Assembly: GCA_022706785.1 (NCBI GenBank)
Contig: JAKJBW010000007.1
Location: forward strand, 25,599-89,598
Length of the DNA: 64,000 nucleotides
Source: Bacillota bacterium
GTDB lineage: Bacteria; Bacillota; Clostridia; UBA1381; UMGS1253
Direction: 5' to 3'
This document shows, in pieces, positions 24,988 through 37,711 of this stretch (the first letter of the stretch is position 1; each line of letters starts with the position of its first letter). The notes below the pieces were generated by a model, which was given only the letters and a program-made list of their open reading frames with translations, searched no databases and was not told where the DNA came from. The position numbers and the translations under genes were made by a program.

Positions 24988-25074
24988 GGAGAGGTGTCCG
25001 AGTGGTTTAAGGAGCTGGTCTTGAAAACCAGTGACTCGAAAGAGCCAAGAGTTCGAATCTCTTCCTCTCCGCCA
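24988..25074 (+). tRNA. tRNA-Ser (anticodon TGA)
   Basis: GGAGAGG / CCTCTCC acceptor, loop CT-TGA-AA, long variable arm, GTTCGAATC, encoded CCA. Confidence 0.9.
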
Positions 25075-25101
25075 CTTGTTTTTAACTTAATAAATTTATA
25101 T

Positions 25102-25193
25102 GGAGAAGTACTCAAGTAGGTCGAAGAGGTGCCCCTGCTAAGGGTATAGGTCGTGAAAGCGGCGCGAGGGTTCGAATCCCTCCTTCTCCGCCA
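25102..25193 (+). tRNA. tRNA-Ser (anticodon GCT)
   Basis: GGAGAAG / CTTCTCC acceptor, loop CT-GCT-AA, long variable arm, GGTTCGAATCC, encoded CCA. Confidence 0.9.
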
Positions 25194-25498
25194 AAGAAAC
25201 TAACAGAATTTAGTACAAAAATAGCTGCTTAAAATAAGCGGCTATTTTTGTGTATTTCCATATATTTACAAGGGATTTGTGGGTTCGCATACGCTGCGTG
25301 TTACCGCTGGTCGGCGCGGTAAATTGATATAAAAATAAGGCGCGATACATATTCCGCTATTTTTATTTGAACCCCACAGGACATATTGCAATAAAGGAAA
25401 ATATTACCGTTAAAAAGCATAAGTTAGCGTTAAAATGTATGAACCCCACAAATCAGCCCCGCGCTTTGGCGGGGCTGGTTTTCATTTTCGGGCGGCTA

Positions 25499-26080
25499 TT
25501 ATTCGGCTACGAAGCCTCGCTCCGCCAGTGCGTCTATCAATTCTTGATTGCTCTCGCCTGTAAGCGTTCCGTTGCGGTCTATGAGGTAGTTTCCGATTGC
25601 GTAAACGTATGTCGGTGCGCCTTTATATACGGGTTTCTCGCCTATTATTTTACCTATTGCCGTAACTAATGCTTTGCGCTGGTCGCCGGTTACGTTGTAC
25701 GCTATTTCTACATTGCCGCTTTCGGCGAGCTGCTCTTGGTCTGCGTTTACCGGGGCAGCTATATTTACTATTACCGCCGGAAATGCTGGCTTTTCTTCTT
25801 CGCTTTCCGCCGCGGCTTTCGCCGCCGCCTTTTCCGCCCGTGTCATTTTGGGGCGTATGTCCGGGAAAACCTCCGGCAGTATGCCTTTTTCAAAAAATAG
25901 CTGAAAGCTGATTTTTCCGTCCTCGGGTACGTCGAATTTGAAGTCTGTAATTTCTAATTCCTTCAGCGCGTCCGGGATGTCAATGTTTTTGTACTGCTTT
26001 ACTTCATCGTTCCCTACCATAAACCTTACCGGAACCGCGTCCCTCAATTTTGCTGTGATTTTTCCTGCTTTCATAGTCAT
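25499..26080 (-). CDS. Hypothetical island protein (193 aa)
   Basis: Long ORF with an Ala/Glu-rich linker; hairpin terminator at 25457-25481 just downstream. No motif recognised. Confidence 0.5.
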   Translation of the reverse strand: MTMKAGKITAKLRDAVPVRFMVGNDEVKQYKNIDIPDALKELEITDFKFDVPEDGKISFQLFFEKGILPEVFPDIRPKMTRAEKAAAKAAAESEEEKPAFPAVIVNIAAPVNADQEQLAESGNVEIAYNVTGDQRKALVTAIGKIIGEKPVYKGAPTYVYAIGNYLIDRNGTLTGESNQELIDALAERGFVAE

Positions 26081-26572
26081 TGTTTTTTCCTACCTTTCAA
26101 AAATTTATTTTTTTGTTGACTTGCTTTGTGTGCCACAGCTTACTCTGGAAATGCTTATAAAGCAAGGCTTTTTATAATTTTCTTTGCATAAAATAAGACA
26201 AAAAAGCTGCTTACTTCTTGTATGAAGTCAACAGCTTTTCAATATTAAAAATATTTTTAATTTTCGCTTGCAATCCCACGGAAATTATTGTAACATCCCG
26301 ACAACGGGATTTTCTCGGAAAATAAAAAGCGTCATGGCAGGCGGGTATGCAGCGAACATAACCGCCCTGCGCGAAAGGTGAACAGACCACCTCTGCACAA
26401 CTTAAAAAGCACCATGACTTTAATATTATACATCCGCTGAGAAATATTTTCAAGTCATTTATACAAATGTGTGCGAGGGTCGGAGGTCGTTTATGCGACC
26501 TTACCTTTGTACGCATTTTTGTATATACGGGAATTTCCCGACATATTAAAATTTGTCGGGAGGTAGTAAAAA

Positions 26573-27250
26573 GTGAACATTTTTGAAAATGCGGGCGCGT
26601 TTCTCGGTGAAATTCGCCTGGAGAGCTTGGGAAATGCTCTGACGGAATTTTACGGGGCGGTGGCTGATGTTAAAGGGAGGCTCGGTCATAGCGGGCGGTT
26701 ATTGGATGAATACTTAGAACTTGTATTCGGGGCTATCCATGAGGTTAGCACGGAAACATCCGCAACGGACGGGTATTCTTCCTGTATGCCGGAGTTAAAA
26801 AGAATGTGCGGCTCGATTGTGCGGGGCGAGAGTGGGTACGAAAACCACCCTCTATACGAGCAAACAAAGCAGTATATTGATTTGCACCCGCTTCCGCACC
26901 TCGAACGCTTGCACAAAATCGAAGTGTACGCCGGGGTTTTAATGGGGGATTACAGTAAATATGCAATAGAAAAATATTACAACAAATACAACGGTAGGCT
27001 GGCGGACAGCGGGTATATTTCCGAATTGAATCCGTTATATAACGATATTTGCGGCATACTTGGGTCGGAGGACGCTATGGAGCGGTTAAATATGATAATT
27101 AAACGAAGTTTTTTAATCACCCCTGTTATGCACTCTTTTTTACAGGCTGTAATTGATAATATGCTTGAAATGCTGTCGTTTAAGGTGCCGGAAACCGCGA
27201 AACATGTCTTTGAATTAGTGCCGTGTATGGAGGGACGTGATGAAAACTGA
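26573..27250 (+). CDS. Hypothetical island protein (225 aa)
   Basis: GTG start with GGGAGG SD. The 14-nt overlap with the next ORF suggests translational coupling. Confidence 0.5.
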   Translation: MNIFENAGAFLGEIRLESLGNALTEFYGAVADVKGRLGHSGRLLDEYLELVFGAIHEVSTETSATDGYSSCMPELKRMCGSIVRGESGYENHPLYEQTKQYIDLHPLPHLERLHKIEVYAGVLMGDYSKYAIEKYYNKYNGRLADSGYISELNPLYNDICGILGSEDAMERLNMIIKRSFLITPVMHSFLQAVIDNMLEMLSFKVPETAKHVFELVPCMEGRDEN

Positions 27251-27641
27251 ATATTTGTCAATGAAACATATTGAGATACTTTTCAAATGTTACTATTTGA
27301 AAAGCTACACGAGGGTCGCCGACGCCGAAAATATTATGCCGGGTAAAGTAAAGCAAATAAAAGAAAACGCCCTTCGCATTATCCGGCTGTCATATAGTCA
27401 ATCTCATATGAAGGGGTTACGGTTTGACGGTGAAAATATCTTAAATTATATGGCGGAACGCGCGGGCATGGAAAAAACGGCTCTATTTTCGATTTTTGAA
27501 GGATATATATCCGAGGGGTTGTCATCAGACAATAAGAAATATTGGGCGAGAATTAAGAGTAAAGAGCCTATTCCCTCGCCCGCTGAACTATTAGATTTTA
27601 TATATGATAAATACGAGATTGAGATTGAAGGTTTTATTTGA
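27237..27641 (+). CDS. Small protein with a sigma-70 region-4-like HTH
   Basis: 134 aa. YTRVADAENIMPGKVKQIKENALRIIR resembles a region-4 HTH. Confidence 0.4.
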   Translation: MMKTEYLSMKHIEILFKCYYLKSYTRVADAENIMPGKVKQIKENALRIIRLSYSQSHMKGLRFDGENILNYMAERAGMEKTALFSIFEGYISEGLSSDNKKYWARIKSKEPIPSPAELLDFIYDKYEIEIEGFI

Positions 27642-27812
27642 CGGGATAATATGGAGGTATATATTGCGTATGCGCGTTAAAACGCCTCTATTTTGGACGA
27701 ACATCATCCGCATATGGAGGAATATGGAAACTGACTATACAATGCCTTAAACGGCAAATATGAGCCTCATACGACGAATGTGGAAAAGCGTCTGTGCTGG
27801 GTGGTGATAGCT

Positions 27813-27981
27813 TTTGACGGAATTACGGAATTGACGGGTTTCTGTATTTCTTTACATATAGACCAGTAGAGGAACAATAGAAAAACCATAAGCAAAAAAA
27901 CTTTGTTTTTTTGCTTATTTGCTTATATAAAAAAGATAAATATATGTACTCGTCAAATCCGTCAAGCCGTCAAATTCGGCG
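27813..27981. repeat. Iteron-like repeat unit 1 (TTGACGG motifs in inverted arrangement)
   Basis: Left arm is tttgacggaattacggaattgacggg...tttacatatagaccagt. Right arm is tatataaaaaagataaatatatgtactcgtcaaatccgtcaagccgtcaaattcggcg. Confidence 0.85.
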
Positions 27982-28180
27982 GGATAAAAAACGAGTGTGA
28001 ATTTACAATAAGATGATTGTTTAAGGGTTGCTTATTTGCTAAGAAGTGTGCTAAAATGGTATTATGTGGAAACGTGATTAATGCTGGATTGTTCTTTGTC
28101 CTGAAAAAATTTATAGTTCGTCGTCAGAAAATCATGAGGAACACGGTAAACACCGTATGTTGGTTACTGCTATAAAAGTA

Positions 28181-28327
28181 TTTGACGGAATTACGGAATT
28201 GACAGGTTTCCGTATTTCTTTACATATAGACCAGTGCGGGGATAGGTAAGGGGTTTATGTGTATACGACTATATAAAAAAGATAAATATATGTACTCGTC
28301 AATTCCGTCAAGCCGTCAAATCCGGCG
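28181..28327. repeat. Iteron-like repeat unit 2
   Basis: The 55-nt left arm matches unit 1 at 53/55. The right arm is near-identical. The central roughly 35-55 nt differs. Confidence 0.85.
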
Positions 28328-28456
28328 AAACGAAAAACAAGGCGCAAAGCTACGGAAAATCAGGGTTACAAGCATATAGATAACGGAAAGGCGAAGCCTA
28401 CAGGGAAATAAGGCGGCGGGGACAAAAACAAATTTTATCTTATGGAGGTTTTGTAT

Positions 28457-28861
28457 ATGCACATAGCATTGGCTTATCTTGACAAAAGAACAGCGACGGT
28501 ATCCGCGATAAAAGATTACACGAGTATGGAGTTTATAATTAACAACACGCCGGATGAGGCGAAGCTGGCACCACAGATTGGCGAGATGGACATCCGCAAG
28601 GAATGCTACCGGCGTGCTTTGGAGTACATGGAGTGGTTTCTTCCTGCATGGGATACGCTCACCGATGACGAGCGGTTTGTCCTTTCGGAGTTTTACCGCG
28701 AGGACGGGGCACAGCGCGGGGACGCTATTGATAACATCCGCGACCGCTTCTATATTGAGAGTACATCCGCCTATAAAAAGAAAAACCGCGCTTTGGCAAA
28801 ATTAACAACTTTGCTATACGGAAAAATAAAAGTGTCCAAAAGTGGAGGGTACTTTTTATAA
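28457..28861 (+). CDS. Phage-type sigma-like transcriptional activator (RinA/ArpU-style, region-4 HTH)
   Basis: Start moved to ATG 28457 because GGAGG at 28444-28448 is its SD. LTDDERFVLSEFY ... ESTSAYKKKNRALAKLTTLLYG. Confidence 0.5.
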   Translation: MHIALAYLDKRTATVSAIKDYTSMEFIINNTPDEAKLAPQIGEMDIRKECYRRALEYMEWFLPAWDTLTDDERFVLSEFYREDGAQRGDAIDNIRDRFYIESTSAYKKKNRALAKLTTLLYGKIKVSKSGGYFL

Positions 28862-29621
28862 AAAGTATGATATAATGTTACTGTGCGAAAAATGAAAAGT
28901 GTCCAAAATCGCGGACGATTTTTCGCATTGGATGTGATACACTGTTATTATCGAAAAGTGCGAAGATGAGATTTTTACGAGATGAACATAATACGTTCTC
29001 GTGTTATACTTGTATCATCAAAAAATACACAAGCAAAAAAGTCTTTGAAGCAGGCGCCTGCCAAAGGCTTTTTTTGTTTGCTTTATATAAATAAAATTTT
29101 TTGCTGGGAAAGGAGGGATAAAATCTCTACAAACCGCTCGACGTTCTACCGGCGCCCCCCTTCGCGTGAAAAATCGCGTTTTCAAATAGGGTATAGGGTG
29201 CGAAAAATGCGCTCATAACTTGTCGTTGCGCGGCGTTTGTGGTGTTTTTCGCGAAATATCCCTCCCCCCTGTGGATAAATCAAATAACAATCAAATGAAG
29301 TGTCCACGCGGAGGAGCTTTAGGCTTGGCAGAGGAAAAAACTTGTTCTGGTGTGTTTGTAAAAAGGTGTAATCTTACGGCTATGCCTTTTGAAAGATGGG
29401 GGTTTTATGGGGGTATTTTTGCTCTAAGGTGTGTTATAATGTTATCATCTGAAAATATCAAAACGGGAGCCTTCGGCGCGGAGGCTCCTTTTTCGTGCTT
29501 ATTTTACGAGGGGGGGACAATATGCAAGAGTTAAAGATATATGCCTATGGAGCAGGACAGGTGTTTGGATGAAATGAAATCAAATCATATAAAAAATAAA
29601 TTTTAAGGAGGATTTATCACT

Positions 29622-30875
29622 ATGAAAAACAAAAAATTACTTGCTATGATGGCAAAACGAAACGAACTGAAAACACAGGCACAGAGACTGCTTGACGCGG
29701 CACAAAAAGTGGGACGCCCGCTCACTAACGCAGAGCGCGAAACGCTGGAGGGGCTGAAAGTTAAAATCGAGCAATGGGACGACACTATCAAGGAAATGGT
29801 AACTCTTTGGGAGGATGGCACACCGAGCGGCGCGCCAAATGGTGGTAACTCCCGTAAATTCACCAGCTTTGGCGAACAACTCCACGCGATATATAACGCC
29901 GCCAAGCCGGAGCGTTCCGCAATGGACGCGCGGTTGTTTAACGGGGCGAGCGGCGCGGGCGAAAGTGTTCCTTCGGACGGTGGGTTTTTAGTGCAGAGCG
30001 ATTTTGCGGCAGGACTTTTAAAGCTAACGTATGAAACAGGAATACTCGCGGCGAGATGTAAAAAAATACCGATTTCAAGCGGCGCGAATGGAGTAAAAAT
30101 CAACGCGCTGGACGACGACTCCCGCGACAACGGGGCAAGGTGGGGCGGCATACAAGCCTTTTGGACTGGCGAGGCGGACGAGTTGACTGCCTCAAAGCCG
30201 AAATTCCGTCGAATGGAATTAACGCTGAAAAAGCTAGCAGGCTTATGCTACACCACCGATGAACTTTTAAGCGACACGATGGCGCTTGAAAGTGTAATCG
30301 CGCAGGGCTTTGCCGAGGAATTTGGGTTCAAAATGGACGACGTTATACTGAACGGCACGGGGACGAACCAGCCGCTCGGCATTCTCAAAAGTAACGGTCT
30401 GGTAACGGTGGCGAAAGAAACCGACCAAGCGGACAAAATCACAGTTGATAATATAACAAAAATGTGGGCGCGATGCTGGGGACGGAGCCGTAACAATTCG
30501 GCGTGGTACATAAACCAAGAATTAGAACCGTACCTTTATGCGCTAAAAATCGGCGACGCGCCCGTGTATATTCCCGCAGGCGGGCTTTCCGCGTCGCCGT
30601 ACGGCTCAATATTTGGTCGCCCAGTAATTCCGATTGAGCAATGCCCGGGGGTGGGCGAGAAGGGCGATATTATCCTTGCCGACTTGTCGCAATATCTACT
30701 TGTTGACAAGGGCGGAATTAACGCTGCGTCGTCAATTCACGTTAGGTTTTTGTATGACGAAAACGTGTTTAGATTTACCTATCGCGTGGATGGTCAGCCG
30801 ATTTGGAACGCACCTATCACTCCGTACAAGGGCGCGGGTACATTGTCGCCGTTTGTAACGCTGGCGGCAAGGTAG
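29622..30875 (+). CDS. Phage major capsid protein, HK97 family
   Basis: 417 aa. AAGGAGG SD. N-terminal coiled-coil delta-like region (LTNAERETLEGLKVKIEQW). Typical HK97-family body (GGFLVQSDFA, LAGLCYTTDELL, TNQPLGIL). Confidence 0.8.
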   Translation: MKNKKLLAMMAKRNELKTQAQRLLDAAQKVGRPLTNAERETLEGLKVKIEQWDDTIKEMVTLWEDGTPSGAPNGGNSRKFTSFGEQLHAIYNAAKPERSAMDARLFNGASGAGESVPSDGGFLVQSDFAAGLLKLTYETGILAARCKKIPISSGANGVKINALDDDSRDNGARWGGIQAFWTGEADELTASKPKFRRMELTLKKLAGLCYTTDELLSDTMALESVIAQGFAEEFGFKMDDVILNGTGTNQPLGILKSNGLVTVAKETDQADKITVDNITKMWARCWGRSRNNSAWYINQELEPYLYALKIGDAPVYIPAGGLSASPYGSIFGRPVIPIEQCPGVGEKGDIILADLSQYLLVDKGGINAASSIHVRFLYDENVFRFTYRVDGQPIWNAPITPYKGAGTLSPFVTLAAR

Positions 30876-31041
30876 AATTATGGCTGAAAAAGCTGGCGGA
30901 GGACAGCAACGCCTACTGGCTCGCGTGGAAAACCGTGGTGTTTTTGCGGAGTAAGGGCGTATAAATTTTTCTAAACAATCACAATGTCCCCTTGATGTAA
31001 TATAGTGACAATGCTAACATCAACGGCGAAAGGAGCGGATT

Positions 31042-31455
31042 ATGATGAACGATAAACAAAAAGCTACAATTTATGAATTAAGACAGCAGGGATTGGTGTA
31101 TAGGCGAATAGCGGCGCGGCTTGGTATATCCGCGAATACGGTAAAAGGGTTTATTTATCGTAAGGGAATTACTTCGCAAGCTGCTGCAAAGACAAAATCG
31201 GAGGGTTGCTGCCCGCAATGTGGCGCGGATATATCTCTTGTAAAAGAGCGCAAGAGCCGGAAATTCTGTTCCGACGCCTGCCGCCATGCTTGGTGGAAAG
31301 CGCACGAGCATATAATAGACCGCCGCGCTTGGTATTCCTGTGTTTGCGCCGGGTGCGGTAAGGCTTTCAAAAGTTACGGCAACAACAAACGAAAATACTG
31401 CGATCACGCTTGCTATATTTCCGATCGCTATAAAAAGGAGGTTGTGGCACAATGA
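31042..31455 (+). CDS. Sigma-region-4-like HTH protein with a C-terminal Cys-rich zinc-ribbon region
   Basis: 137 aa. IYELRQQGLVYRRIAARLGISANTVKGFIYRK, then CPQCG...CSDAC...CAGCG...CDHAC. Confidence 0.55.
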   Translation: MMNDKQKATIYELRQQGLVYRRIAARLGISANTVKGFIYRKGITSQAAAKTKSEGCCPQCGADISLVKERKSRKFCSDACRHAWWKAHEHIIDRRAWYSCVCAGCGKAFKSYGNNKRKYCDHACYISDRYKKEVVAQ

Positions 31456-31604
31456 CCGAGGCGCATTTTGACCGCGAGGCGTCCTTTCGGGTGGCGATTA
31501 TCGCCGCTCGTGAAATGTTAAAAAACAACGTAATATCTGCCGCCGATTATTCAAAAATCGCGGCTTTTTTTATGAAAAAATATAAACCTTTTTTCGTGGA
31601 ATAA
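31452..31604 (+). CDS. Small hypothetical protein (50 aa)
   Basis: ATGA overlap with the preceding stop. MTEAHFDREASFRVAIIAAREMLKNNVISAADYSKIAAFF... Not in the ORF track (under 60 aa). Confidence 0.35.
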   Translation: MTEAHFDREASFRVAIIAAREMLKNNVISAADYSKIAAFFMKKYKPFFVE

Positions 31605-31676
31605 TGCTGAAAAACCTTGATTTCCACAGTGTTTGAGAGTAAGCTGTCAACACTAAGGAAGGGGGTGTTTAGCAAT

Positions 31677-32990
31677 ATGGAACGAATAATAACGCAAGTA
31701 ACGCCGCAGGCAATACACCTTGCGGCACCACAATCAAAGCGTGTAGCCGCCTATGCGAGAGTATCGAGCGGCAAGGACGCAATGCTGCACAGCCTGTCGG
31801 CACAAGTAAGCCATTACAGCGGATATATCCAAAGGCAACGCGGCTGGCAGTATGTGGGCGTATATGTGGATGAAGCCGTTACCGGGACAAAGGATTCACG
31901 GGCGGGATTCAAAGAAATGATCGGGGATTGCCGTGCCGGGAAGGTTGATATGATTATAACCAAATCAATCACACGCTTTGCGCGAAATACGGTTACTCTT
32001 TTGAATACCGTCCGCGAATTAAAGCTGCTGGGAATTGACATATTTTTTGAAAAAGAAAATATCCACTCAATGAGCGGGGATGGTGAGATTATGCTTACCA
32101 TCCTCGCTTCATACGCGCAGGAAGAAAGCCGGAGCGTTTCGGAAAATTGCAAATGGCGCATAAGAAAACGGTTTGAAAAAGGCGAGCTTGTGAACTTGCG
32201 GTTTTTGTATGGTTACGATATTAAAAAGAGCGTAATCGAAATTGACCCGGAGCAGGCGGAAATCGTCCGCGTGATTTTTGACGACTATATCGGCGGCATG
32301 GGCGGAGTGTTAATTGCACAAAAGCTAAATGAGGCGGGTATTCCGTCATTTTTCGGCGCACGCTGGAGCGCATCCCGTATTCTTGACATTATCAAAAACG
32401 AGAAGTACATCGGCGATTCGCTGGGACAAAAATCCTTTGTTGCCGACCACTTGACAAAGAAAACCGTCCGTAATATTGGGCAATTACCGCAATATTACGC
32501 CGAGAATGTACTCCCTGCCATTATCGACGCGGCGACCTTCGAGGCGGCGCAGGACGTTATGGCGGGGCGGCGGGAGCATTTCAACGCCAAAGACACCAGC
32601 GCGAACCGTTACCCGCTCACGGGGAAAATCCTGTGCGGGAATTGCGGAAAAAAATTCAAGCGCAAAAAAGGCGTCGGGTGTTTCTATTGGCAATGTTCCA
32701 CCTTTTTACAGGATGGCAAGGCGTACTGCCCCGCCAAGCAAATACCCGAAGGGACGCTGTACGCGGCAACTGCCGAGGCATTAGGACTGGCGGAATTTGA
32801 CGCGGCTGTATTTGCGGAGCATATCGCGGAAATACGGGTGCCGGAGCATAACAAGCTGGTATTTGTATTTTATGACGGACGGACGTTGGAGCGCGAATGG
32901 CAAGACCGCTCCCGGCGCGAAAGCTGGACGGAGAAAATGCGGCAAGCTGCGCGGGAACACGCGCTCAGAGGACAAAGAAAATTAGATTAG
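31677..32990 (+). CDS. Large serine recombinase 1
   Basis: Start at ATG 31677 (AAGGAAGGGGG SD). VAAYARVSSGKD catalytic-Ser motif, ITKSITRFARNT, recombinase domain, Cys4 zinc ribbon CGNCGKKF...CSTF. Confidence 0.85.
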   Translation: MERIITQVTPQAIHLAAPQSKRVAAYARVSSGKDAMLHSLSAQVSHYSGYIQRQRGWQYVGVYVDEAVTGTKDSRAGFKEMIGDCRAGKVDMIITKSITRFARNTVTLLNTVRELKLLGIDIFFEKENIHSMSGDGEIMLTILASYAQEESRSVSENCKWRIRKRFEKGELVNLRFLYGYDIKKSVIEIDPEQAEIVRVIFDDYIGGMGGVLIAQKLNEAGIPSFFGARWSASRILDIIKNEKYIGDSLGQKSFVADHLTKKTVRNIGQLPQYYAENVLPAIIDAATFEAAQDVMAGRREHFNAKDTSANRYPLTGKILCGNCGKKFKRKKGVGCFYWQCSTFLQDGKAYCPAKQIPEGTLYAATAEALGLAEFDAAVFAEHIAEIRVPEHNKLVFVFYDGRTLEREWQDRSRRESWTEKMRQAAREHALRGQRKLD

Positions 32991-33003
32991 GGGGTTTTGA
33001 CTT

Positions 33004-34614
33004 ATGCCAGCAAAAACGGCAACAATAGAAAAACGGGTACGGTATATTCCCGCCGTGGATAATCTCGCGCGGGTGCCGTTCAGTACGGAGTACGTCAAAA
33101 GACGCACGGCTGCTTATGCCCGCGTATCTACCGACGAGGAAGAACAGCTAAACAGCTATGAGGCGCAAGTTCAGTATTATACTGAATATATACAGTCAAA
33201 CGACGAATGGGAATTTGCGGGTATGTACGCGGATAAAGACCGCTCCGGCACCACAACTAAACGCCGGGATGATTTTAACCGTATGATAAAGGACGCGCAG
33301 GAGGGCAAAATTGATTTTATTATTACAAAGTCCGTTTCCCGGTTTGCCCGGAATACGGTTGACACTTTAACGACGGTGCGGCAATTAAAGGAAAAAGGCG
33401 TCGAGGTGTATTTTGAAAAAGAGAATATTTACACGCTGGATAGTAAGGGCGAGCTTCTTATAACTATTATGTCGAGCCTCGCCCAAGAGGAAAGCCGCTC
33501 CATATCCGAAAATGTGACGTGGGGGCAGCGTAAGCGCATGGCGGACGGAAAAGTGAGCCTGCCTTACAAACAATTCCTCGGATATGAAAAGGGCAAGGAC
33601 GGTTTGCCGAAAATTGTGGACGCCGAAGCGAAAATAGTGCGGCGCATTTACCGCCTGTTTCTATACGGCAAAGCCCCTGCTACAATCGCCGCCTTACTAA
33701 CGGTGGACGGCATACCTACTCCGTCCGGCAAGCAGGAATGGCGGGCGCAGACGGTTATTAGTATTCTTACAAACGAGAAATACAAGGGCGACGCGCTATT
33801 GCAGAAAAGCTACACGGTGGATTTCCTTACCAAGAAAAAGAAGGTAAACGAGGGCGAGGTTCCGCAATACTACGTCGAACAAAGCCATCCCGCTATTATC
33901 GAGCGGGAAATATTTGACCTCGTACAACAAGAATGGAAACAGCGCAAAGCGTCCGGCAAACAGTCAAGCTCGGTTCATCCATTTTCGGGTAGAATATTCT
34001 GCGGCGACTGCGGCGACGGGTACGGCTCTAAAATATGGCACAGTAACAGCAAATACCGCCGCGAGGTGTGGTCTTGCAACGGCAAGCACTATGGCGGCAA
34101 AAAGTGCCAAACACCACGCCTAACCAACGAAGAAATACAAACGGCGTTCGTAAACGCCTTTAACGGCTTGATAGACCACAAAACCGAGATAATGAAAGCA
34201 TACGGGGAAATATGCGGCATATTGACCGACACCGCCGCTATTGACGCCGAACGCGAGGAATTGCAGCGGGAATGCGACGTTGTAATGGAATTACTCCGAA
34301 AATGTATTGAAGAAAACGCGCATACCTCGCTTAATCAGGACGAATACCGCCAGCGGTACGAGGGTTATACGGCGCGGTTTGAAACCGCCCGGAACAAGCT
34401 GGTGGAGCTTGACGCCGAACGGCTGGCGCGTATCGCCAAACGCGCAAATATCACGCTGTTTTTGGAAACGCTGGAACAGCGCGACGGGCTTATATCCGCC
34501 TTTGACGAGGAACTATGGTACATTACCGTGGAAAATGTAAAGGTGTACGACGGTAAGCGGCTGATATTTACCTTCAAGAACGGCGTAACGGTGGAAGTAC
34601 CCTCTACGAAGTAA
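33004..34614 (+). CDS. Large serine recombinase 2
   Basis: 536 aa. AAYARVSTDEEEQ, ITKSVSRFARNT, zinc ribbon CGDCGDGY...CNGKH, C-terminal coiled coil. Confidence 0.9.
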   Translation: MPAKTATIEKRVRYIPAVDNLARVPFSTEYVKRRTAAYARVSTDEEEQLNSYEAQVQYYTEYIQSNDEWEFAGMYADKDRSGTTTKRRDDFNRMIKDAQEGKIDFIITKSVSRFARNTVDTLTTVRQLKEKGVEVYFEKENIYTLDSKGELLITIMSSLAQEESRSISENVTWGQRKRMADGKVSLPYKQFLGYEKGKDGLPKIVDAEAKIVRRIYRLFLYGKAPATIAALLTVDGIPTPSGKQEWRAQTVISILTNEKYKGDALLQKSYTVDFLTKKKKVNEGEVPQYYVEQSHPAIIEREIFDLVQQEWKQRKASGKQSSSVHPFSGRIFCGDCGDGYGSKIWHSNSKYRREVWSCNGKHYGGKKCQTPRLTNEEIQTAFVNAFNGLIDHKTEIMKAYGEICGILTDTAAIDAEREELQRECDVVMELLRKCIEENAHTSLNQDEYRQRYEGYTARFETARNKLVELDAERLARIAKRANITLFLETLEQRDGLISAFDEELWYITVENVKVYDGKRLIFTFKNGVTVEVPSTK

Positions 34615-34623
34615 CCTCATATT

Positions 34624-34667
34624 CCCGCCCGTGGGTTCGTCCGAGCCTGCGGGCTTATTTTTGTTTT
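34624..34667 (+). terminator. Terminator after the recombinase genes
   Basis: cccgc...gcggg hairpin followed by CTTATTTTTGTTTT. Confidence 0.5.
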
Positions 34668-34705
34668 GGGGCTTAAGTGTTTTAAGGAAATTATTACAAA
34701 AAACA

Positions 34706-34734
34706 TTGAAAATTGCATAAATATGTGTTATAAT
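34706..34734 (+). promoter_or_regulatory. Strong sigma-A promoter heading the RT cassette
   Basis: TTGAAA, 17 nt, TGtTATAAT (extended -10). Confidence 0.55.
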
Positions 34735-34948
34735 AATTTTACCAGTGTAGAAATAGTCAGATTCACTCCCATTTGGCTCACATTTATTGTGGGCGGCGTT
34801 GTGCCTCAAGGCATGAACGCATTTTTCTCCGGCGCACGCTCTCTCATGTTGTTTTAACACTTGCTAACACTAACGTGTTATGCAGTAGTGATGACAGTGT
34901 GATGATGTGTATGTGTATAAGATAAATCAATTTTATCGGGAGTTAGAT

Positions 34949-35256
34949 TGTGCTGGTGTTATCGGTATACGGCTATTATCTCTTTGTTATTAGAGGGTGC
35001 GGGAGACCCTCGACCGTTTTGGTTAGGGGCCAATAATAACAAGGAGGTGAAAACATCGTGAAGAAAGCGGATAGGCCTAATGTTACCATTAATATTTTTA
35101 ATGGTAACAAGATTTCTCTTGATGGCAAGTCATTGCTGCTAATTATAGTAGTAATTGTATGCCTAACACTGGTTGTATCGTTACGTAGTCCCGAACTGCA
35201 AGCTAATGTTGTCCGCTGGTTAATTAGCTTAGCAGAGAACTACTAACACCAGCACA
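34949..35256 (+). ncRNA. Candidate retron msr-msd-like structured RNA closed by a1/a2-like inverted repeats
   Basis: 13-bp perfect IR: tgtgctggtgtta at 34949-34961 and taacaccagcaca at 35244-35256. Several internal hairpins. Lies directly upstream of the RT. Boundaries are inferred. Confidence 0.4.
35058..35246 (+). CDS. 62-aa predicted single-pass membrane peptide; may instead be non-coding
   Basis: AAGGAGGTGA SD 7 nt before GTG. Hydrophobic core LLLIIVVIVCLTLVV. However, it lies wholly inside the a1/a2 bracket and contains a perfect 12-bp hairpin. Confidence 0.4.
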   Translation: MKKADRPNVTINIFNGNKISLDGKSLLLIIVVIVCLTLVVSLRSPELQANVVRWLISLAENY

Positions 35257-35280
35257 CTAAAATAATGAGGTGTATGCCTT

Positions 35281-36240
35281 TTGATATATAATAATTGTAA
35301 GCTATATCAGTTACAATCAAAAAGAGTATTGAAATATCTGTTGGGGATTACGGATACAAAAATGTTTAATCAAGCATACGTGGCGTCTTTAATAAAGCCT
35401 TATATTGACTCCAACGGAAAGCCGCGTATTATTGAACCACCTTCTTATGGGTTAAAACAAATACAGGCACGAATCAAAAAACTTCTTTATGCGGTTGTGG
35501 TACCAGAAAATGTGTTTTCCGGTATTAAAGGCAGATCATATGCCCAAAACGCAGAAATTCACAAAGGAAATAACTATACATATAAAATAGATTTAACAGC
35601 TTTCTTTCCGAGTATTTCACGAGAAAAAGTTTATGCCTTTTTCAAAAATGAAATGCAAACCGCTCCAGACATAGCGGAGTTTTTGACGAATGTTACAACG
35701 GTAAACATAGATTTATCTGACGTTCAAAACATAGATGATATAAATAAATTTCTTGCAGATAAGAAAATTAAAACTCGCAACCACCTCATATCGGGTTCAC
35801 CGACAAGTCAAATATTATCATATATGGTCAATCATAAGATGTTTAATGAACTTCAAGATTTGGCAAGTAAGAATCAAGCTGTTATGACAATATATGTGGA
35901 TGATGTGGTGTTCTCTTCTAAAAACAAAATATCCAGTGACTTTAAATATGCCATTAACGCAATTGTTAAAAAACATGAGTATAAAATATCAAAGCATAAG
36001 GTTAAAGGGTATTCCAAAAATTATCCTAAACTGATAACAGGGGCAATTATTGATAAAAATGGAAATATGAGAGTCAAAAACTCATTAAGATATAAAATTA
36101 TTATGGCATTTAACGAATCTTTAAAAAATCCTGATGATCTAGAAATTAGAAAACGACTAAGAGGACTTGTTACAGCAGCAAGGCAGGTTGAGCCAAATGC
36201 ATATCCAGAGATACGAAAATATGCATTTAAAAAATTATAA
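35281..36240 (+). CDS. Retron-type reverse transcriptase
   Basis: 319 aa. TTG start with GAGGTG SD 8 nt upstream. PRIIEPPSYGLKQIQ, GRSYAQNAEIH (NAxxH), IDLTAFFPSI, ISGSPTSQILS, IYVDDVVFS (YxDD), LITGAII (xTG). Confidence 0.8.
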   Translation: MIYNNCKLYQLQSKRVLKYLLGITDTKMFNQAYVASLIKPYIDSNGKPRIIEPPSYGLKQIQARIKKLLYAVVVPENVFSGIKGRSYAQNAEIHKGNNYTYKIDLTAFFPSISREKVYAFFKNEMQTAPDIAEFLTNVTTVNIDLSDVQNIDDINKFLADKKIKTRNHLISGSPTSQILSYMVNHKMFNELQDLASKNQAVMTIYVDDVVFSSKNKISSDFKYAINAIVKKHEYKISKHKVKGYSKNYPKLITGAIIDKNGNMRVKNSLRYKIIMAFNESLKNPDDLEIRKRLRGLVTAARQVEPNAYPEIRKYAFKKL

Positions 36241-36313
36241 ATACAGCAGTTATTTTTTAATATGTAACGCTCTTTGTTGTATGCAGTAATTTTTTTTTGG
36301 GGGGGGTGATGCA

Positions 36314-36895
36314 ATGGAAAAAGGGGATAATCGCGCAAGGTTCAATGAAGTAAGGAAAATGCTTTTTGCAGAGAATATTGATACCAAAAAACCTTGTATA
36401 TTTCTGTCACATAGGAGTTTAGATAAAGAAATGGTAAGAACAATAGCGGATTATATTGCCGAGCAAGGTATAGATTATTATTTAGACGAGGAAGATCCTG
36501 CCCTACAAGAAGCCGATAAAAATGAGGATGACCAAGCAACTGTTGATTGTATAAAAGAAGGCATTGGATTATCTTCGCACATATTATGTGTTTTATCTTA
36601 TAATACAGTCAGTTCCTGGTGGGTTCCTTTTGAAGTGGGATATGCAGATTGTTTAAAAAAGAAAGTGGCATCTTTAAAAATAAAAGATTTATCTGATAAA
36701 GAGATACCTGCATTTCTGAGAATCTATGAATGCCTTGCCGGAATTAAAGAGTTTAACAAATACCTTGTAGGAATATCAGATCCATACGGTGGACTTTTCT
36801 CAAAGTACAATAAGCAACAGAATGGAACGACTTCTCCTTCTGTTGAGATAGCATACACTCAAAATCACCCACTATATGATACGCTTGATGAATAG
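36314..36895 (+). CDS. TIR-like (TIR/NDT-superfamily) effector protein
   Basis: 193 aa. CIFLSHRSLDKEMVRTIADYIAEQGIDYYLDE and ILCVLSYNTVSSWWVPFEVGYA match the TIR_2-style pattern (FxSH..D ... S.W...E). Assigned from motifs only. Confidence 0.6.
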   Translation: MEKGDNRARFNEVRKMLFAENIDTKKPCIFLSHRSLDKEMVRTIADYIAEQGIDYYLDEEDPALQEADKNEDDQATVDCIKEGIGLSSHILCVLSYNTVSSWWVPFEVGYADCLKKKVASLKIKDLSDKEIPAFLRIYECLAGIKEFNKYLVGISDPYGGLFSKYNKQQNGTTSPSVEIAYTQNHPLYDTLDE

Positions 36896-36938
36896 GTATA
36901 ATTAAATTAGTCTTCATCTATTTATATTACCGGGGAAA

Positions 36939-37379
36939 ATGACTATGAGTGACTATATCGAAAAAGGGAAGCAAATTATGAACGATTTTACTAAAACATC
37001 AAGTTTTACACGCAAATTGGTATGTGTCAATATTGTATCGTCTGATCCAAAACGGCTCGCCGATTTCTACCGAAACGTTTTAGGTGCAGACATCAACGAG
37101 GAACATGGTGCTCCGCGCCGCATTGAAATATGGTTCGGAGAAAGAGACGAAAACACCGTTTGTATTGTTGTAAATTATGAAGAAGGATTTACGCCGCAGA
37201 CCGTTACCGCCTGTCAGGGATTTGAGTTTCGCGTGACAGACGTTGACGCGGAATACAAACGGATACGAGATTTGGATATTGATGTAAAAGAACCGCCAAA
37301 AGATGTATCTTGGGGTTATCGTTTTTTCAATATCAAAGATCCGGACGGTAACGGTATTGATATTGTTCAAGCTTTATAA
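36939..37379 (+). CDS. VOC-family (glyoxalase / bleomycin-resistance-like) protein
   Basis: 146 aa. LADFYRNVLGA ... FEFRVTDVDAEYKRI ... GYRFFNIKDPDGNGIDIVQ. Confidence 0.7.
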   Translation: MTMSDYIEKGKQIMNDFTKTSSFTRKLVCVNIVSSDPKRLADFYRNVLGADINEEHGAPRRIEIWFGERDENTVCIVVNYEEGFTPQTVTACQGFEFRVTDVDAEYKRIRDLDIDVKEPPKDVSWGYRFFNIKDPDGNGIDIVQAL

Positions 37380-37497
37380 GGGCATATAGGAAGTATAAGC
37401 ATTTTTCTATATTCCCGTTAAAAAGTGTACCCCCTAACACAACGAAATGCACCCCATAAAAGAAAAATACACCCCATAATAAAAACTTTTCGCGTTA

Positions 37498-37526
37498 TTG
37501 ACTTTCTCGTTAAATTGTATTAAAAT
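37498..37526 (+). promoter_or_regulatory. Promoter-like element (TTGACT, 17 nt, TAAAAT)
   Basis: Good -35 and -10 spacing. The only downstream element is the hairpin terminator about 25 nt later. Confidence 0.4.
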
Positions 37527-37547
37527 TTGTTGCATTAGACAATCAGT

Positions 37548-37580
37548 AATGGCGATTCTTTGGAATCGCCATTATTTTTT
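37548..37580 (+). terminator. Strong intrinsic terminator
   Basis: aatggcgattc / gaatcgccatt 11-bp stem, tttg loop, then ATTTTTT. Confidence 0.65.
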
Positions 37581-37711
37581 ACCTCAACTCTCCGCCATTT
37601 TACAATGAACCGGGTTTGCCGGTTCACTAAGGGAAGTTCGCGGCTGCCCAAAACTTAAGCGCAGAGCATAGTTTAAGGAAACTTGGGCTATGCTCTTTTT
37701 CTTTTCAGCAT

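Follow-up and report, generated by a model that had tools for sequence, protein, structure and literature searches.

We analysed a 64,000-nucleotide stretch of the Bacillota bacterium contig JAKJBW010000007.1 (hereafter the window) around an open reading frame (ORF) at 36314-36895, which lies just downstream of the reverse transcriptase (RT) gene of a retron. The ORF starts with ATG, runs on the plus strand and encodes 193 amino acids (aa). Judged by its sequence, its product is a TIR protein with a single domain, intact and of the ThsB type; ThsB is the phage-sensing component of Thoeris defence that cleaves nicotinamide adenine dinucleotide (NAD+). The gene and its recognizable parts are the following.

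36314-36895, plus strand: single-domain ThsB-family TIR gene, 193 aa (ORF list, Pfam, PADLOC, homologues, AlphaFold2 model)
36395-36412, plus strand: first-strand motif C-I-F-L-S-H, residues 28-33 (C28, F30, S32 and H33 family-invariant; aligned to IFLSH of BcThsB, PDB 8btn)
36614-36646, plus strand: glutamate motif of residues 101-111, S-W-W-V-P-F-E-V-G-Y-A, which holds Glu107, the putative catalytic residue (alignment A1)
36395-36787, plus strand: core of the TIR fold, residues 28-158 (AlphaFold2 strands, Foldseek matches)
36800-36892, plus strand: family-specific C-terminal region, residues 163-193 (model confidence, invariant columns)
36290-36306, plus strand: T9G8 homopolymer run in the ribosome-binding region just 5' of the start codon (sequence; identical in locus L006, a second sample of the window's own element)

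A first-pass annotation of the letters alone had proposed this ORF as an effector candidate with a TIR-like domain and a glutamate motif, FEVGYA, like that of nucleoside 2-deoxyribosyltransferases. The 193-aa ORF and the quoted strings are present as it described them, with CIFLSHRSLDKEMVRTIADYIAEQGIDYYLDE spanning residues 28-59, ILCVLSYNTVSSWWVPFEVGYA residues 90-111 and KIKDLSDKEIPAFLRIYECLAG residues 122-143, and the domain call holds: this is a TIR-type flavodoxin-like domain with the S-x-W...E glutamate motif. The resemblance to TIR domains far exceeds chance: the protein matches Pfam TIR_2 at E = 4.4e-10 and 40.5 bits, above the gathering cut-off of 28, reaches 21.2 bits with ThsB_TIR, exactly the gathering cut-off of that model (21.2), and is matched by eight PADLOC ThsB models (5e-18 to 1e-7). 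A search of 5.8 billion proteins returned 27 homologues besides the protein's own cluster (E from 2e-58 to 3e-26), with lengths of 178-208 aa; for 22 of them the alignment covers 95% or more of the query. Profile searching of 1.84 billion cluster representatives found 178 proteins at E ≤ 1e-30 and 712 at E ≤ 1e-10, the best 150 of which are mostly 170-210 aa long; at the level of sequence, the family is a moderately sized subfamily of short TIRs. Precomputed annotations assign TIR_2 to 27 of the 28 family members, ThsB_TIR to 22 and nucleoside 2-deoxyribosyltransferase (NDT) to none. Against the PDB, the family profile matches 12 chains at E ≤ 0.01, all of them TIRs and none an NDT, with BcThsB (8btn) the best at 4e-12; the matches include the B. 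cereus TIR 8fz9, TLR2, TLR6, TLR15, AbTIR and ThsB1.

The family alignment (A1) contains 28 invariant columns, all retained in the window's TIR, and the full length of the protein, C-terminal tail included, is conserved across the 27 homologues. Within the glutamate motif, S101, W102, W103, V104, P105, E107 and G109 are invariant in 28/28 sequences. Glu107, whose codon is gaa at 36632-36634, aligns with the glutamate of the solved TIR chains 8btn, 9m0n and 8fz9 (all three from a single-sequence search), a position that we take to be the catalytic glutamate of TIR NADases. The T9G8 run upstream of the start codon is a candidate slippage site; it is identical in L006 and so gives no sign of length variation.

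We built an AlphaFold2 model of the protein on the family alignment. It has a mean predicted local distance difference test score (pLDDT) of 86.3 and a predicted template modelling score of 0.84, a confident prediction of the TIR-type flavodoxin-like fold. Five strands (residues 28-32, 54-56, 89-94, 117-122 and 139-142) and their helices make up the fold, and residues 113-158 form the final two strand-helix units. The first-pass annotation had held that the last 80 or so residues match nothing recognizable and might be a sensor or partner interface. Instead, in the model the C-terminal half is not an extra domain, since the TIR fold runs to about residue 158, and the whole length is conserved among homologues; the interface proposal falls for everything up to that residue. 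The parts that the fold leaves unexplained are the last ~35 residues and a conserved N-terminal segment. Residues 163-176 have pLDDT below 50 and are modelled as a disordered linker, and the tail that follows returns to pLDDT 86-91, with H185 invariant and P186 and L187 near-invariant. At the other end, the G4-x-N6-R-A segment is conserved across the family, G4 and N6 being invariant. Both this segment and the H-P-L tail occur family-wide, whether or not a partner gene is present.

The retron upstream of the TIR gene consists of three elements.

34949-35256, plus strand: the retron's hybrid RNA, structured and closed by a perfect 13-nt inverted repeat, 34949-34961 / 35244-35256 (inverted repeats; fold; conservation)
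35058-35246, plus strand: small protein (SP) of 62 aa, hydrophobic in its C-terminal half (ORF; homologues directly 5' of RT)
35281-36240, plus strand: type VI-like retron RT, 319 aa (PADLOC RT_VI, Pfam RVT_1; YVDD, NAxxH and ITG motifs)

The RT matches PADLOC RT_VI at 3e-72 over profile positions 1-276 of 279, with the next model at 7e-37, and N90, A91, H94, D207, D208, T253 and G254 are invariant in its alignment (A4). The inverted repeat encloses a structured 5' part, the SP ribosome-binding site and the SP ORF, and the retron RNA (326 nt) has a predicted fold of -112 kcal/mol (z = -6.4). It is 91% conserved in the closest relatives, and the SP ribosome-binding site AAGGAGG is buried in the stem 34980-34992 / 35034-35046, which is kept in 7/7 sequences. 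SP homologues are found in the loci of five relatives at 66-74% identity over the full length, and at L073 a fragment of 18 aa remains, 89% identical and directly upstream of RT. In type VI retrons SP is the toxic effector. In Retron-Vpa2, which has a hybrid RNA, SP is toxic and stays translationally silent until multicopy single-stranded DNA (msDNA) is made, and in Retron-Sen3 SP is a toxin neutralized by a helix-turn-helix (HTH) protein. By likeness to these systems, SP is the candidate toxin, and thus the candidate effector, of the retron in the window, which shares with them the RT clade, an SP ORF that lies inside a structured RNA bounded by inverted repeats, and masking of the ribosome-binding site.

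Canonical type VI retrons encode the HTH as a third protein, which binds RT and neutralizes SP, and a Cro/C1-type HTH gene lies upstream of or overlaps RT in about 78% of them. In contrast, no Cro/C1 HTH was found between 34600 and 35281, where the small ORFs have no Pfam match, and the unit comprises SP followed by RT and no more, an arrangement that all close relatives share. Because SP and RT are kept without an HTH gene in all 12 close relatives with a 5' flank, the retron is, by gene content and RT sequence, an HTH-less Firmicutes branch of type VI. In distant proteobacterial relatives of the RT (~30% identity), an ORF of ~106 aa overlaps the RT start and fits the reported size and position of the type VI HTH.

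Three side observations concern this retron and its relatives. A long-range pairing is predicted inside the SP coding region between ~35069-35078 and ~35205-35214 (columns 188-197 / 371-380 of alignment A5), in which AAGCGGATAG in the window and AAACGGATAA in the A5 consensus pair with TTGTCCGCTG and TTATCCGTTT, respectively; two pairs change on both sides across relatives, and the pairing recalls the conserved one between non-coding RNA and SP coding region reported for Retron-Sen3. A scan of 34000-37500 placed Rfam malK-I over the SP leader at 27 bits, below its threshold of 60.3 (E = 0.035), which we set aside as chance or a generic hairpin. Finally, the 492-aa RT homologue P0063 (58% identical) carries a C-terminal extension of ~170 aa that includes a hydrophobic segment and matches nothing in Pfam; the extension is not a TIR, which excludes an RT-TIR fusion, and may reflect a fusion or read-through.

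We surveyed gene neighbourhoods from both sides. The RT-side survey covered 59 loci with relatives of the RT, 14 of them at 49-73% identity, and 12 close-clade loci retained a 5' flank. Single-sequence RT scans contributed one metagenome locus and no viral one, their patterns being too specific, and an alignment-based viral scan yielded 52 loci. The TIR-side survey covered 70 loci retrieved for the TIR and for relatives of it. SP lies directly upstream of RT in 12/12 close-clade loci that have a 5' flank, and a TIR of any kind occurs within 3.5 kb on either side of RT in 0/59. Conversely, an RT related to the window's RT occurs in 0/70 TIR-family loci, L006 excepted. Compared across six loci (L069, L070, L073, L074, L077 and L079), the gene after RT differs from relative to relative and encodes RhuM, an uncharacterized protein of 396 aa, GroES/GroEL, a tyrosine integrase in convergent orientation, a PcfJ-like protein or an HD/ExoX-like protein. 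The RT relatives adjoin mobile-element genes (tyrosine integrase, TnpV, Mob and PcfJ), and the position after RT has the look of a variable slot, for cargo or as a junction, at the ends of mobile elements. A TIR gene in that position is seen only in the window's element. Both genes have Firmicutes kin, the closest named relatives of the RT and the nearest homologues of the TIR coming from Clostridia or other Firmicutes. In phage and plasmid collections RT matches are at most 37% identical; no TIR match was found in the phage collection, and plasmid TIR matches are at most 35% identical, the one with annotation in hand belonging to a multi-TIR operon of an Aureispira plasmid (L130). Terminators after RT in the relatives, examined to date the TIR insertion, gave no information.

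What is conserved as a retron unit is thus the SP-bearing hybrid RNA together with RT, and the TIR stands outside it, because SP and RT are conserved, no TIR accompanies the RT relatives and no related RT accompanies the TIR family beyond L006. The neighbouring retron is complete without the TIR, possessing a hybrid RNA, a translationally masked 62-aa SP as candidate toxin, and an RT. This speaks against the first-pass proposal of a retron effector, given that the RT lineage keeps SP and never a TIR.

Both genes occupy the end of a mobile element of ~12 kb (window positions ~25000-37600) that is integrated between host genes. Era, RecO and solute-binding protein genes precede it, and a 290-aa ORF follows it, then ORFs that by eye resemble a glutamate synthase small subunit and a glutamate dehydrogenase. 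The GC content across 34.9-37.0 kb is 28-39%, versus ~50% on both sides. Other features of the element include the following.

29622-30875: Phage_capsid gene
31042-31455: sigma-region-4-like HTH with zinc-ribbon motifs
31452-31604: SHOCT-domain ORF
31617-34614, plus strand: two large serine recombinases, end of the integrated mobile element (Pfam Resolvase, Recombinase and Zn_ribbon_recom in both)
34627-34654: terminator after the recombinases (scan)
34706-34734, plus strand: promoter-like site, TTGAAA, 17 nt, TG-TATAAT (consensus scan, 11/12 consensus matches)
36939-37379, plus strand: VOC/glyoxalase-family gene, 146 aa, 43 nt after the TIR gene (Pfam Glyoxalase, 6e-14; present in L006)
37545-37576, plus strand: first strong terminator-like hairpin after 34654 (scan; none predicted between the RT, TIR and VOC genes)

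From the consensus scans, SP, RT, TIR and VOC may share one transcript driven by the promoter-like site 34706-34734. The VOC gene was not found beside other members of the TIR family. The end of such elements that carries the retron and the TIR looks like a cargo slot.

The relatives of the TIR are found mainly in company of another kind. In about 42 of the 70 TIR-family loci, a gene on the same strand and within 3 kb of the TIR encodes a protein that we call the cluster-1 partner (for example L001 5591-6076, L008 709-1188, L012 6574-7272, L024 7057-7734, L027 7088-7729 and some 35 more). This protein has a length of 154-272 aa and an N-terminal membrane helix in some cases only, contains the motif L-R-P-[HF]-[LFC]-[TS]-x-[WYH]-[HQ] and, judged by eye, appears mostly helical. 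It has no match at E ≤ 0.001 in Pfam, PADLOC, NCBIfam or PHROGs, models of DUF6650, SLATT and Macro included. About 12 loci instead or additionally encode a TIR-SLOG protein of ~670-700 aa (SLOG = LD_cluster2, 9e-70; L023 7134-9215, L032 7104-9125, L034 7119-9140, L048 6494-8515 and L025 3206-5305), some of them also holding cluster 1, and second and third ThsB-type TIR genes are common. A TIR together with a 'TIR and SLOG' protein (ThsJ) constitutes type IX Thoeris, whose TIR makes 3'cADPR upon infection. With cluster 1, the type IX-like architecture and the additional ThsB-type TIRs as partners, the family behaves, as far as gene content tells, as a ThsB-type family of sensors and signal producers.

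The window's TIR has none of this company. A profile search of the six-frame translation of the 64-kb window found no cluster-1 or TIR-SLOG partner, and there is no second TIR. Thus, an operon with an effector, as expected of a Thoeris member, is missing here, whereas other members of the family do lie in Thoeris-type operons. Like ThsB (best solved match BcThsB, 8btn; context like type IX), the protein is a single-domain TIR of ~190 aa with the F-L-S-H first strand, a W-x-P-x-E-x-G-Y glutamate motif and PADLOC matches down to 5e-18, and its relatives lie in operons with more ThsB-type TIRs and TIR-SLOG. Unlike ThsB in Thoeris, it belongs to a small partner-less subclade, and the commonest partner of its family is not an annotated Thoeris effector in the four libraries searched. 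In a neighbour-joining tree, it groups with partner-less TIRs from L063, L126 and L064, the sister group being a cluster-1-partnered clade. At L063 the TIR is flanked by genes for a phage-type methyltransferase and an HNH protein, and around L064 no mobile-element genes are identifiable. These partner-less TIRs keep the family motifs at 47-54% identity, and the partner-less state appears to be conserved in this small lineage.

Taken together, we consider it probable that the TIR is an independent, autonomous defence or sensor gene rather than the dedicated effector of the adjacent retron, and most likely it is a cargo defence gene of the mobile element that acts alone. Standalone TIRs are usually regarded as NAD+-depleting effectors. 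In design, the gene resembles the E. coli systems that consist of a single short-TIR protein (TIR-V, TIR-VI, TIR-IX), in which defence requires the TIR active-site residues (PMC11350192): one gene, one short TIR domain and no partner. Those systems are proteobacterial, in contrast to the Clostridia and Firmicutes homologues of the window's TIR. By analogy with its family, a phage component would trigger the TIR, which would then assemble and, via Glu107, split NAD+ to give nicotinamide plus a product derived from ADP-ribose. This could end in consumption of NAD+ that aborts infection, as in the E. coli systems. Alternatively, the protein could make a signal of the cyclic ADP-ribose type, as phage-triggered ThsB TIRs do when they convert NAD+, which a Thoeris effector from another part of the genome would receive.

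Several observations weigh against an autonomous role. The TIR gene begins 73 nt downstream of RT on the same strand, shares its low GC content, and is separated from it by no terminator or promoter predicted by the scan; co-transcription of the TIR with the retron is likely for these reasons, and the two may be linked in function. The RT-TIR pair is known from the window and L006 only, whose copies are near-identical (RT 99.7% over 319 aa; SP, TIR and VOC proteins 100%) and hence not independent. At L126 the sequence downstream of the TIR extends for 146 nt, which makes its 'solo' status weak. Moreover, canonical ThsB-type TIRs signal and are not toxic alone, so that a solo copy without an effector may be inert.

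The first of these points also speaks for a genuine third retron component, either a second effector switched on by msDNA/RT or a stand-in for the missing HTH that would control SP. Indeed, the strand, the 73-nt gap without a predicted terminator, and the common promoter-like site and composition suit such a component, the canonical type VI HTH is absent here, and retrons are known to swap effector modules, one type fusing a TIR to RT. We nonetheless regard it as unlikely. The close RT relatives (49-73% identity) also lack both an HTH and any third gene, which indicates that the SP-RT pair works without one. The surveys count against it from both directions (0/59 and, L006 aside, 0/70), and the nearest relatives of the TIR occur in unrelated contexts. 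Similarity to the TIR of type XII retrons is weak, the NCBIfam model NF042941 (Retron_TIR) scoring 22 bits with the TIR and 93 bits in its other match at the locus, against a cut-off of 600. In terms of what defines a retron accessory gene, the TIR is adjacent to RT, on the same strand and plausibly co-transcribed, but the conserved association across genomes that serves as the criterion of Mestre et al. 2020 was not found.

Less probable still is that a retron of the type VI lineage has taken up a ThsB-type TIR, not fused to RT, as an additional module on its transcript, with msDNA/RT gating the TIR besides unmasking SP. We would give similarly little credence to the corollary of a new retron subtype, its capture caught in a single lineage, that links msDNA sensing to TIR/NAD+ chemistry. 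Were the TIR retron-dependent, the locus would represent the first case of a retron paired with an unfused TIR, and of a type VI retron having two outputs.

The lack of a partner could also mean that the gene is a functionless orphan of a decayed Thoeris operon, or that it encodes a decoy or interference protein by which the mobile element perturbs host TIR signalling. The family is normally partnered and this copy has no partner in 64 kb; it resides on a mobile element beside recombinases, and its nearest homologue lies between the phage-type methyltransferase and HNH genes. Yet the ORF is full length and keeps all family-invariant residues, and the motifs persist in partner-less members that have diverged to 47-54% identity, which argues for purifying selection on a working protein. 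We know of no TIR-based anti-defence protein, and we judge both the remnant and the decoy to be improbable.

The first-pass annotation left undecided whether the domain is a TIR or an NDT, and the doubt was a fair one. In Foldseek searches of the PDB and viral models, NDTs rank together with TIR, ThsB and SPARTA-TIR structures at E of 1e-4 to 1e-3, and the top match in each library is an NDT (7o62, E = 8e-5 with a TM score of 0.74 on the target; Hokovirus NDT, 5e-5), with TIR and ThsB structures within one order of magnitude of 7o62. SARM1, the TLR2 TIR, MilB, BcmB and DNPH1 are matched as well. The fold search cannot decide because both families share a fold, and it is the sequence profiles that settle the assignment as a TIR. 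That the gene encodes instead a nucleoside or nucleotide N-glycosidase of the NDT/MilB/DNPH1 kind, with nucleotides as its substrates like the NDT-type effectors found in type II retrons, is thus very improbable, even though NDTs belong to the same flavodoxin-like superfamily and carry a similar glutamate-containing motif. The F-E-x-G-Y-A string resembles the NDT nucleophile motif, and the resemblance to NDTs is real, the NDT family PF05014 matching the protein at E = 0.013. This match, however, reaches 16.1 bits against a cut-off of 28.8, while TIR_2 is well over its own. Likewise, the PDB chains matched by the family profile (12/12) and the annotations of the family (27/28 with TIR_2 and 22 with ThsB_TIR) are of TIRs with no NDT among them, the first strand is of the TIR type, F-L-S-H, and the genomic partners of the family are Thoeris-like.

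A split type XII retron ('Retron-TIR', an RT fused to a C-terminal TIR_2) would share with the locus the presence of a TIR_2-type domain transcribed in the same direction as a retron RT, but it is rejected since the RT falls in the wrong clade (RT_VI 241 bits versus RT-TIR_XII 107 bits, PADLOC) and the genes are unfused, 73 nt apart and not a conserved pair.

With the TIR read as an independent defence or sensor gene, the stakes are modest: it is one more short single-gene TIR on mobile elements, and the case shows that lying next to a retron RT does not suffice to make a gene the effector of that retron. The useful correction is that the retron's effector is the candidate 62-aa SP inside the apparent non-coding RNA, following the hybrid-RNA design of type VI in an HTH-less Firmicutes branch, and this HTH-less hybrid-RNA/SP retron is the more notable object at the locus. 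The family survey had a by-product in the cluster-1 partner, a recurrent companion of these TIRs that is unannotated in four libraries and may be an uncharacterized Thoeris effector, possibly among the 29 predicted types of Yirmiya et al. 2025. A further member of the family lies in an eight-gene, TIR-rich operon on an Aureispira plasmid (L130; NZ_CP133672.1, 49576-55280), whose order is a hypothetical gene, an NDT-domain protein, a TIR, a 687-aa TIR protein, the TIR of this family, another TIR and a hypothetical gene.

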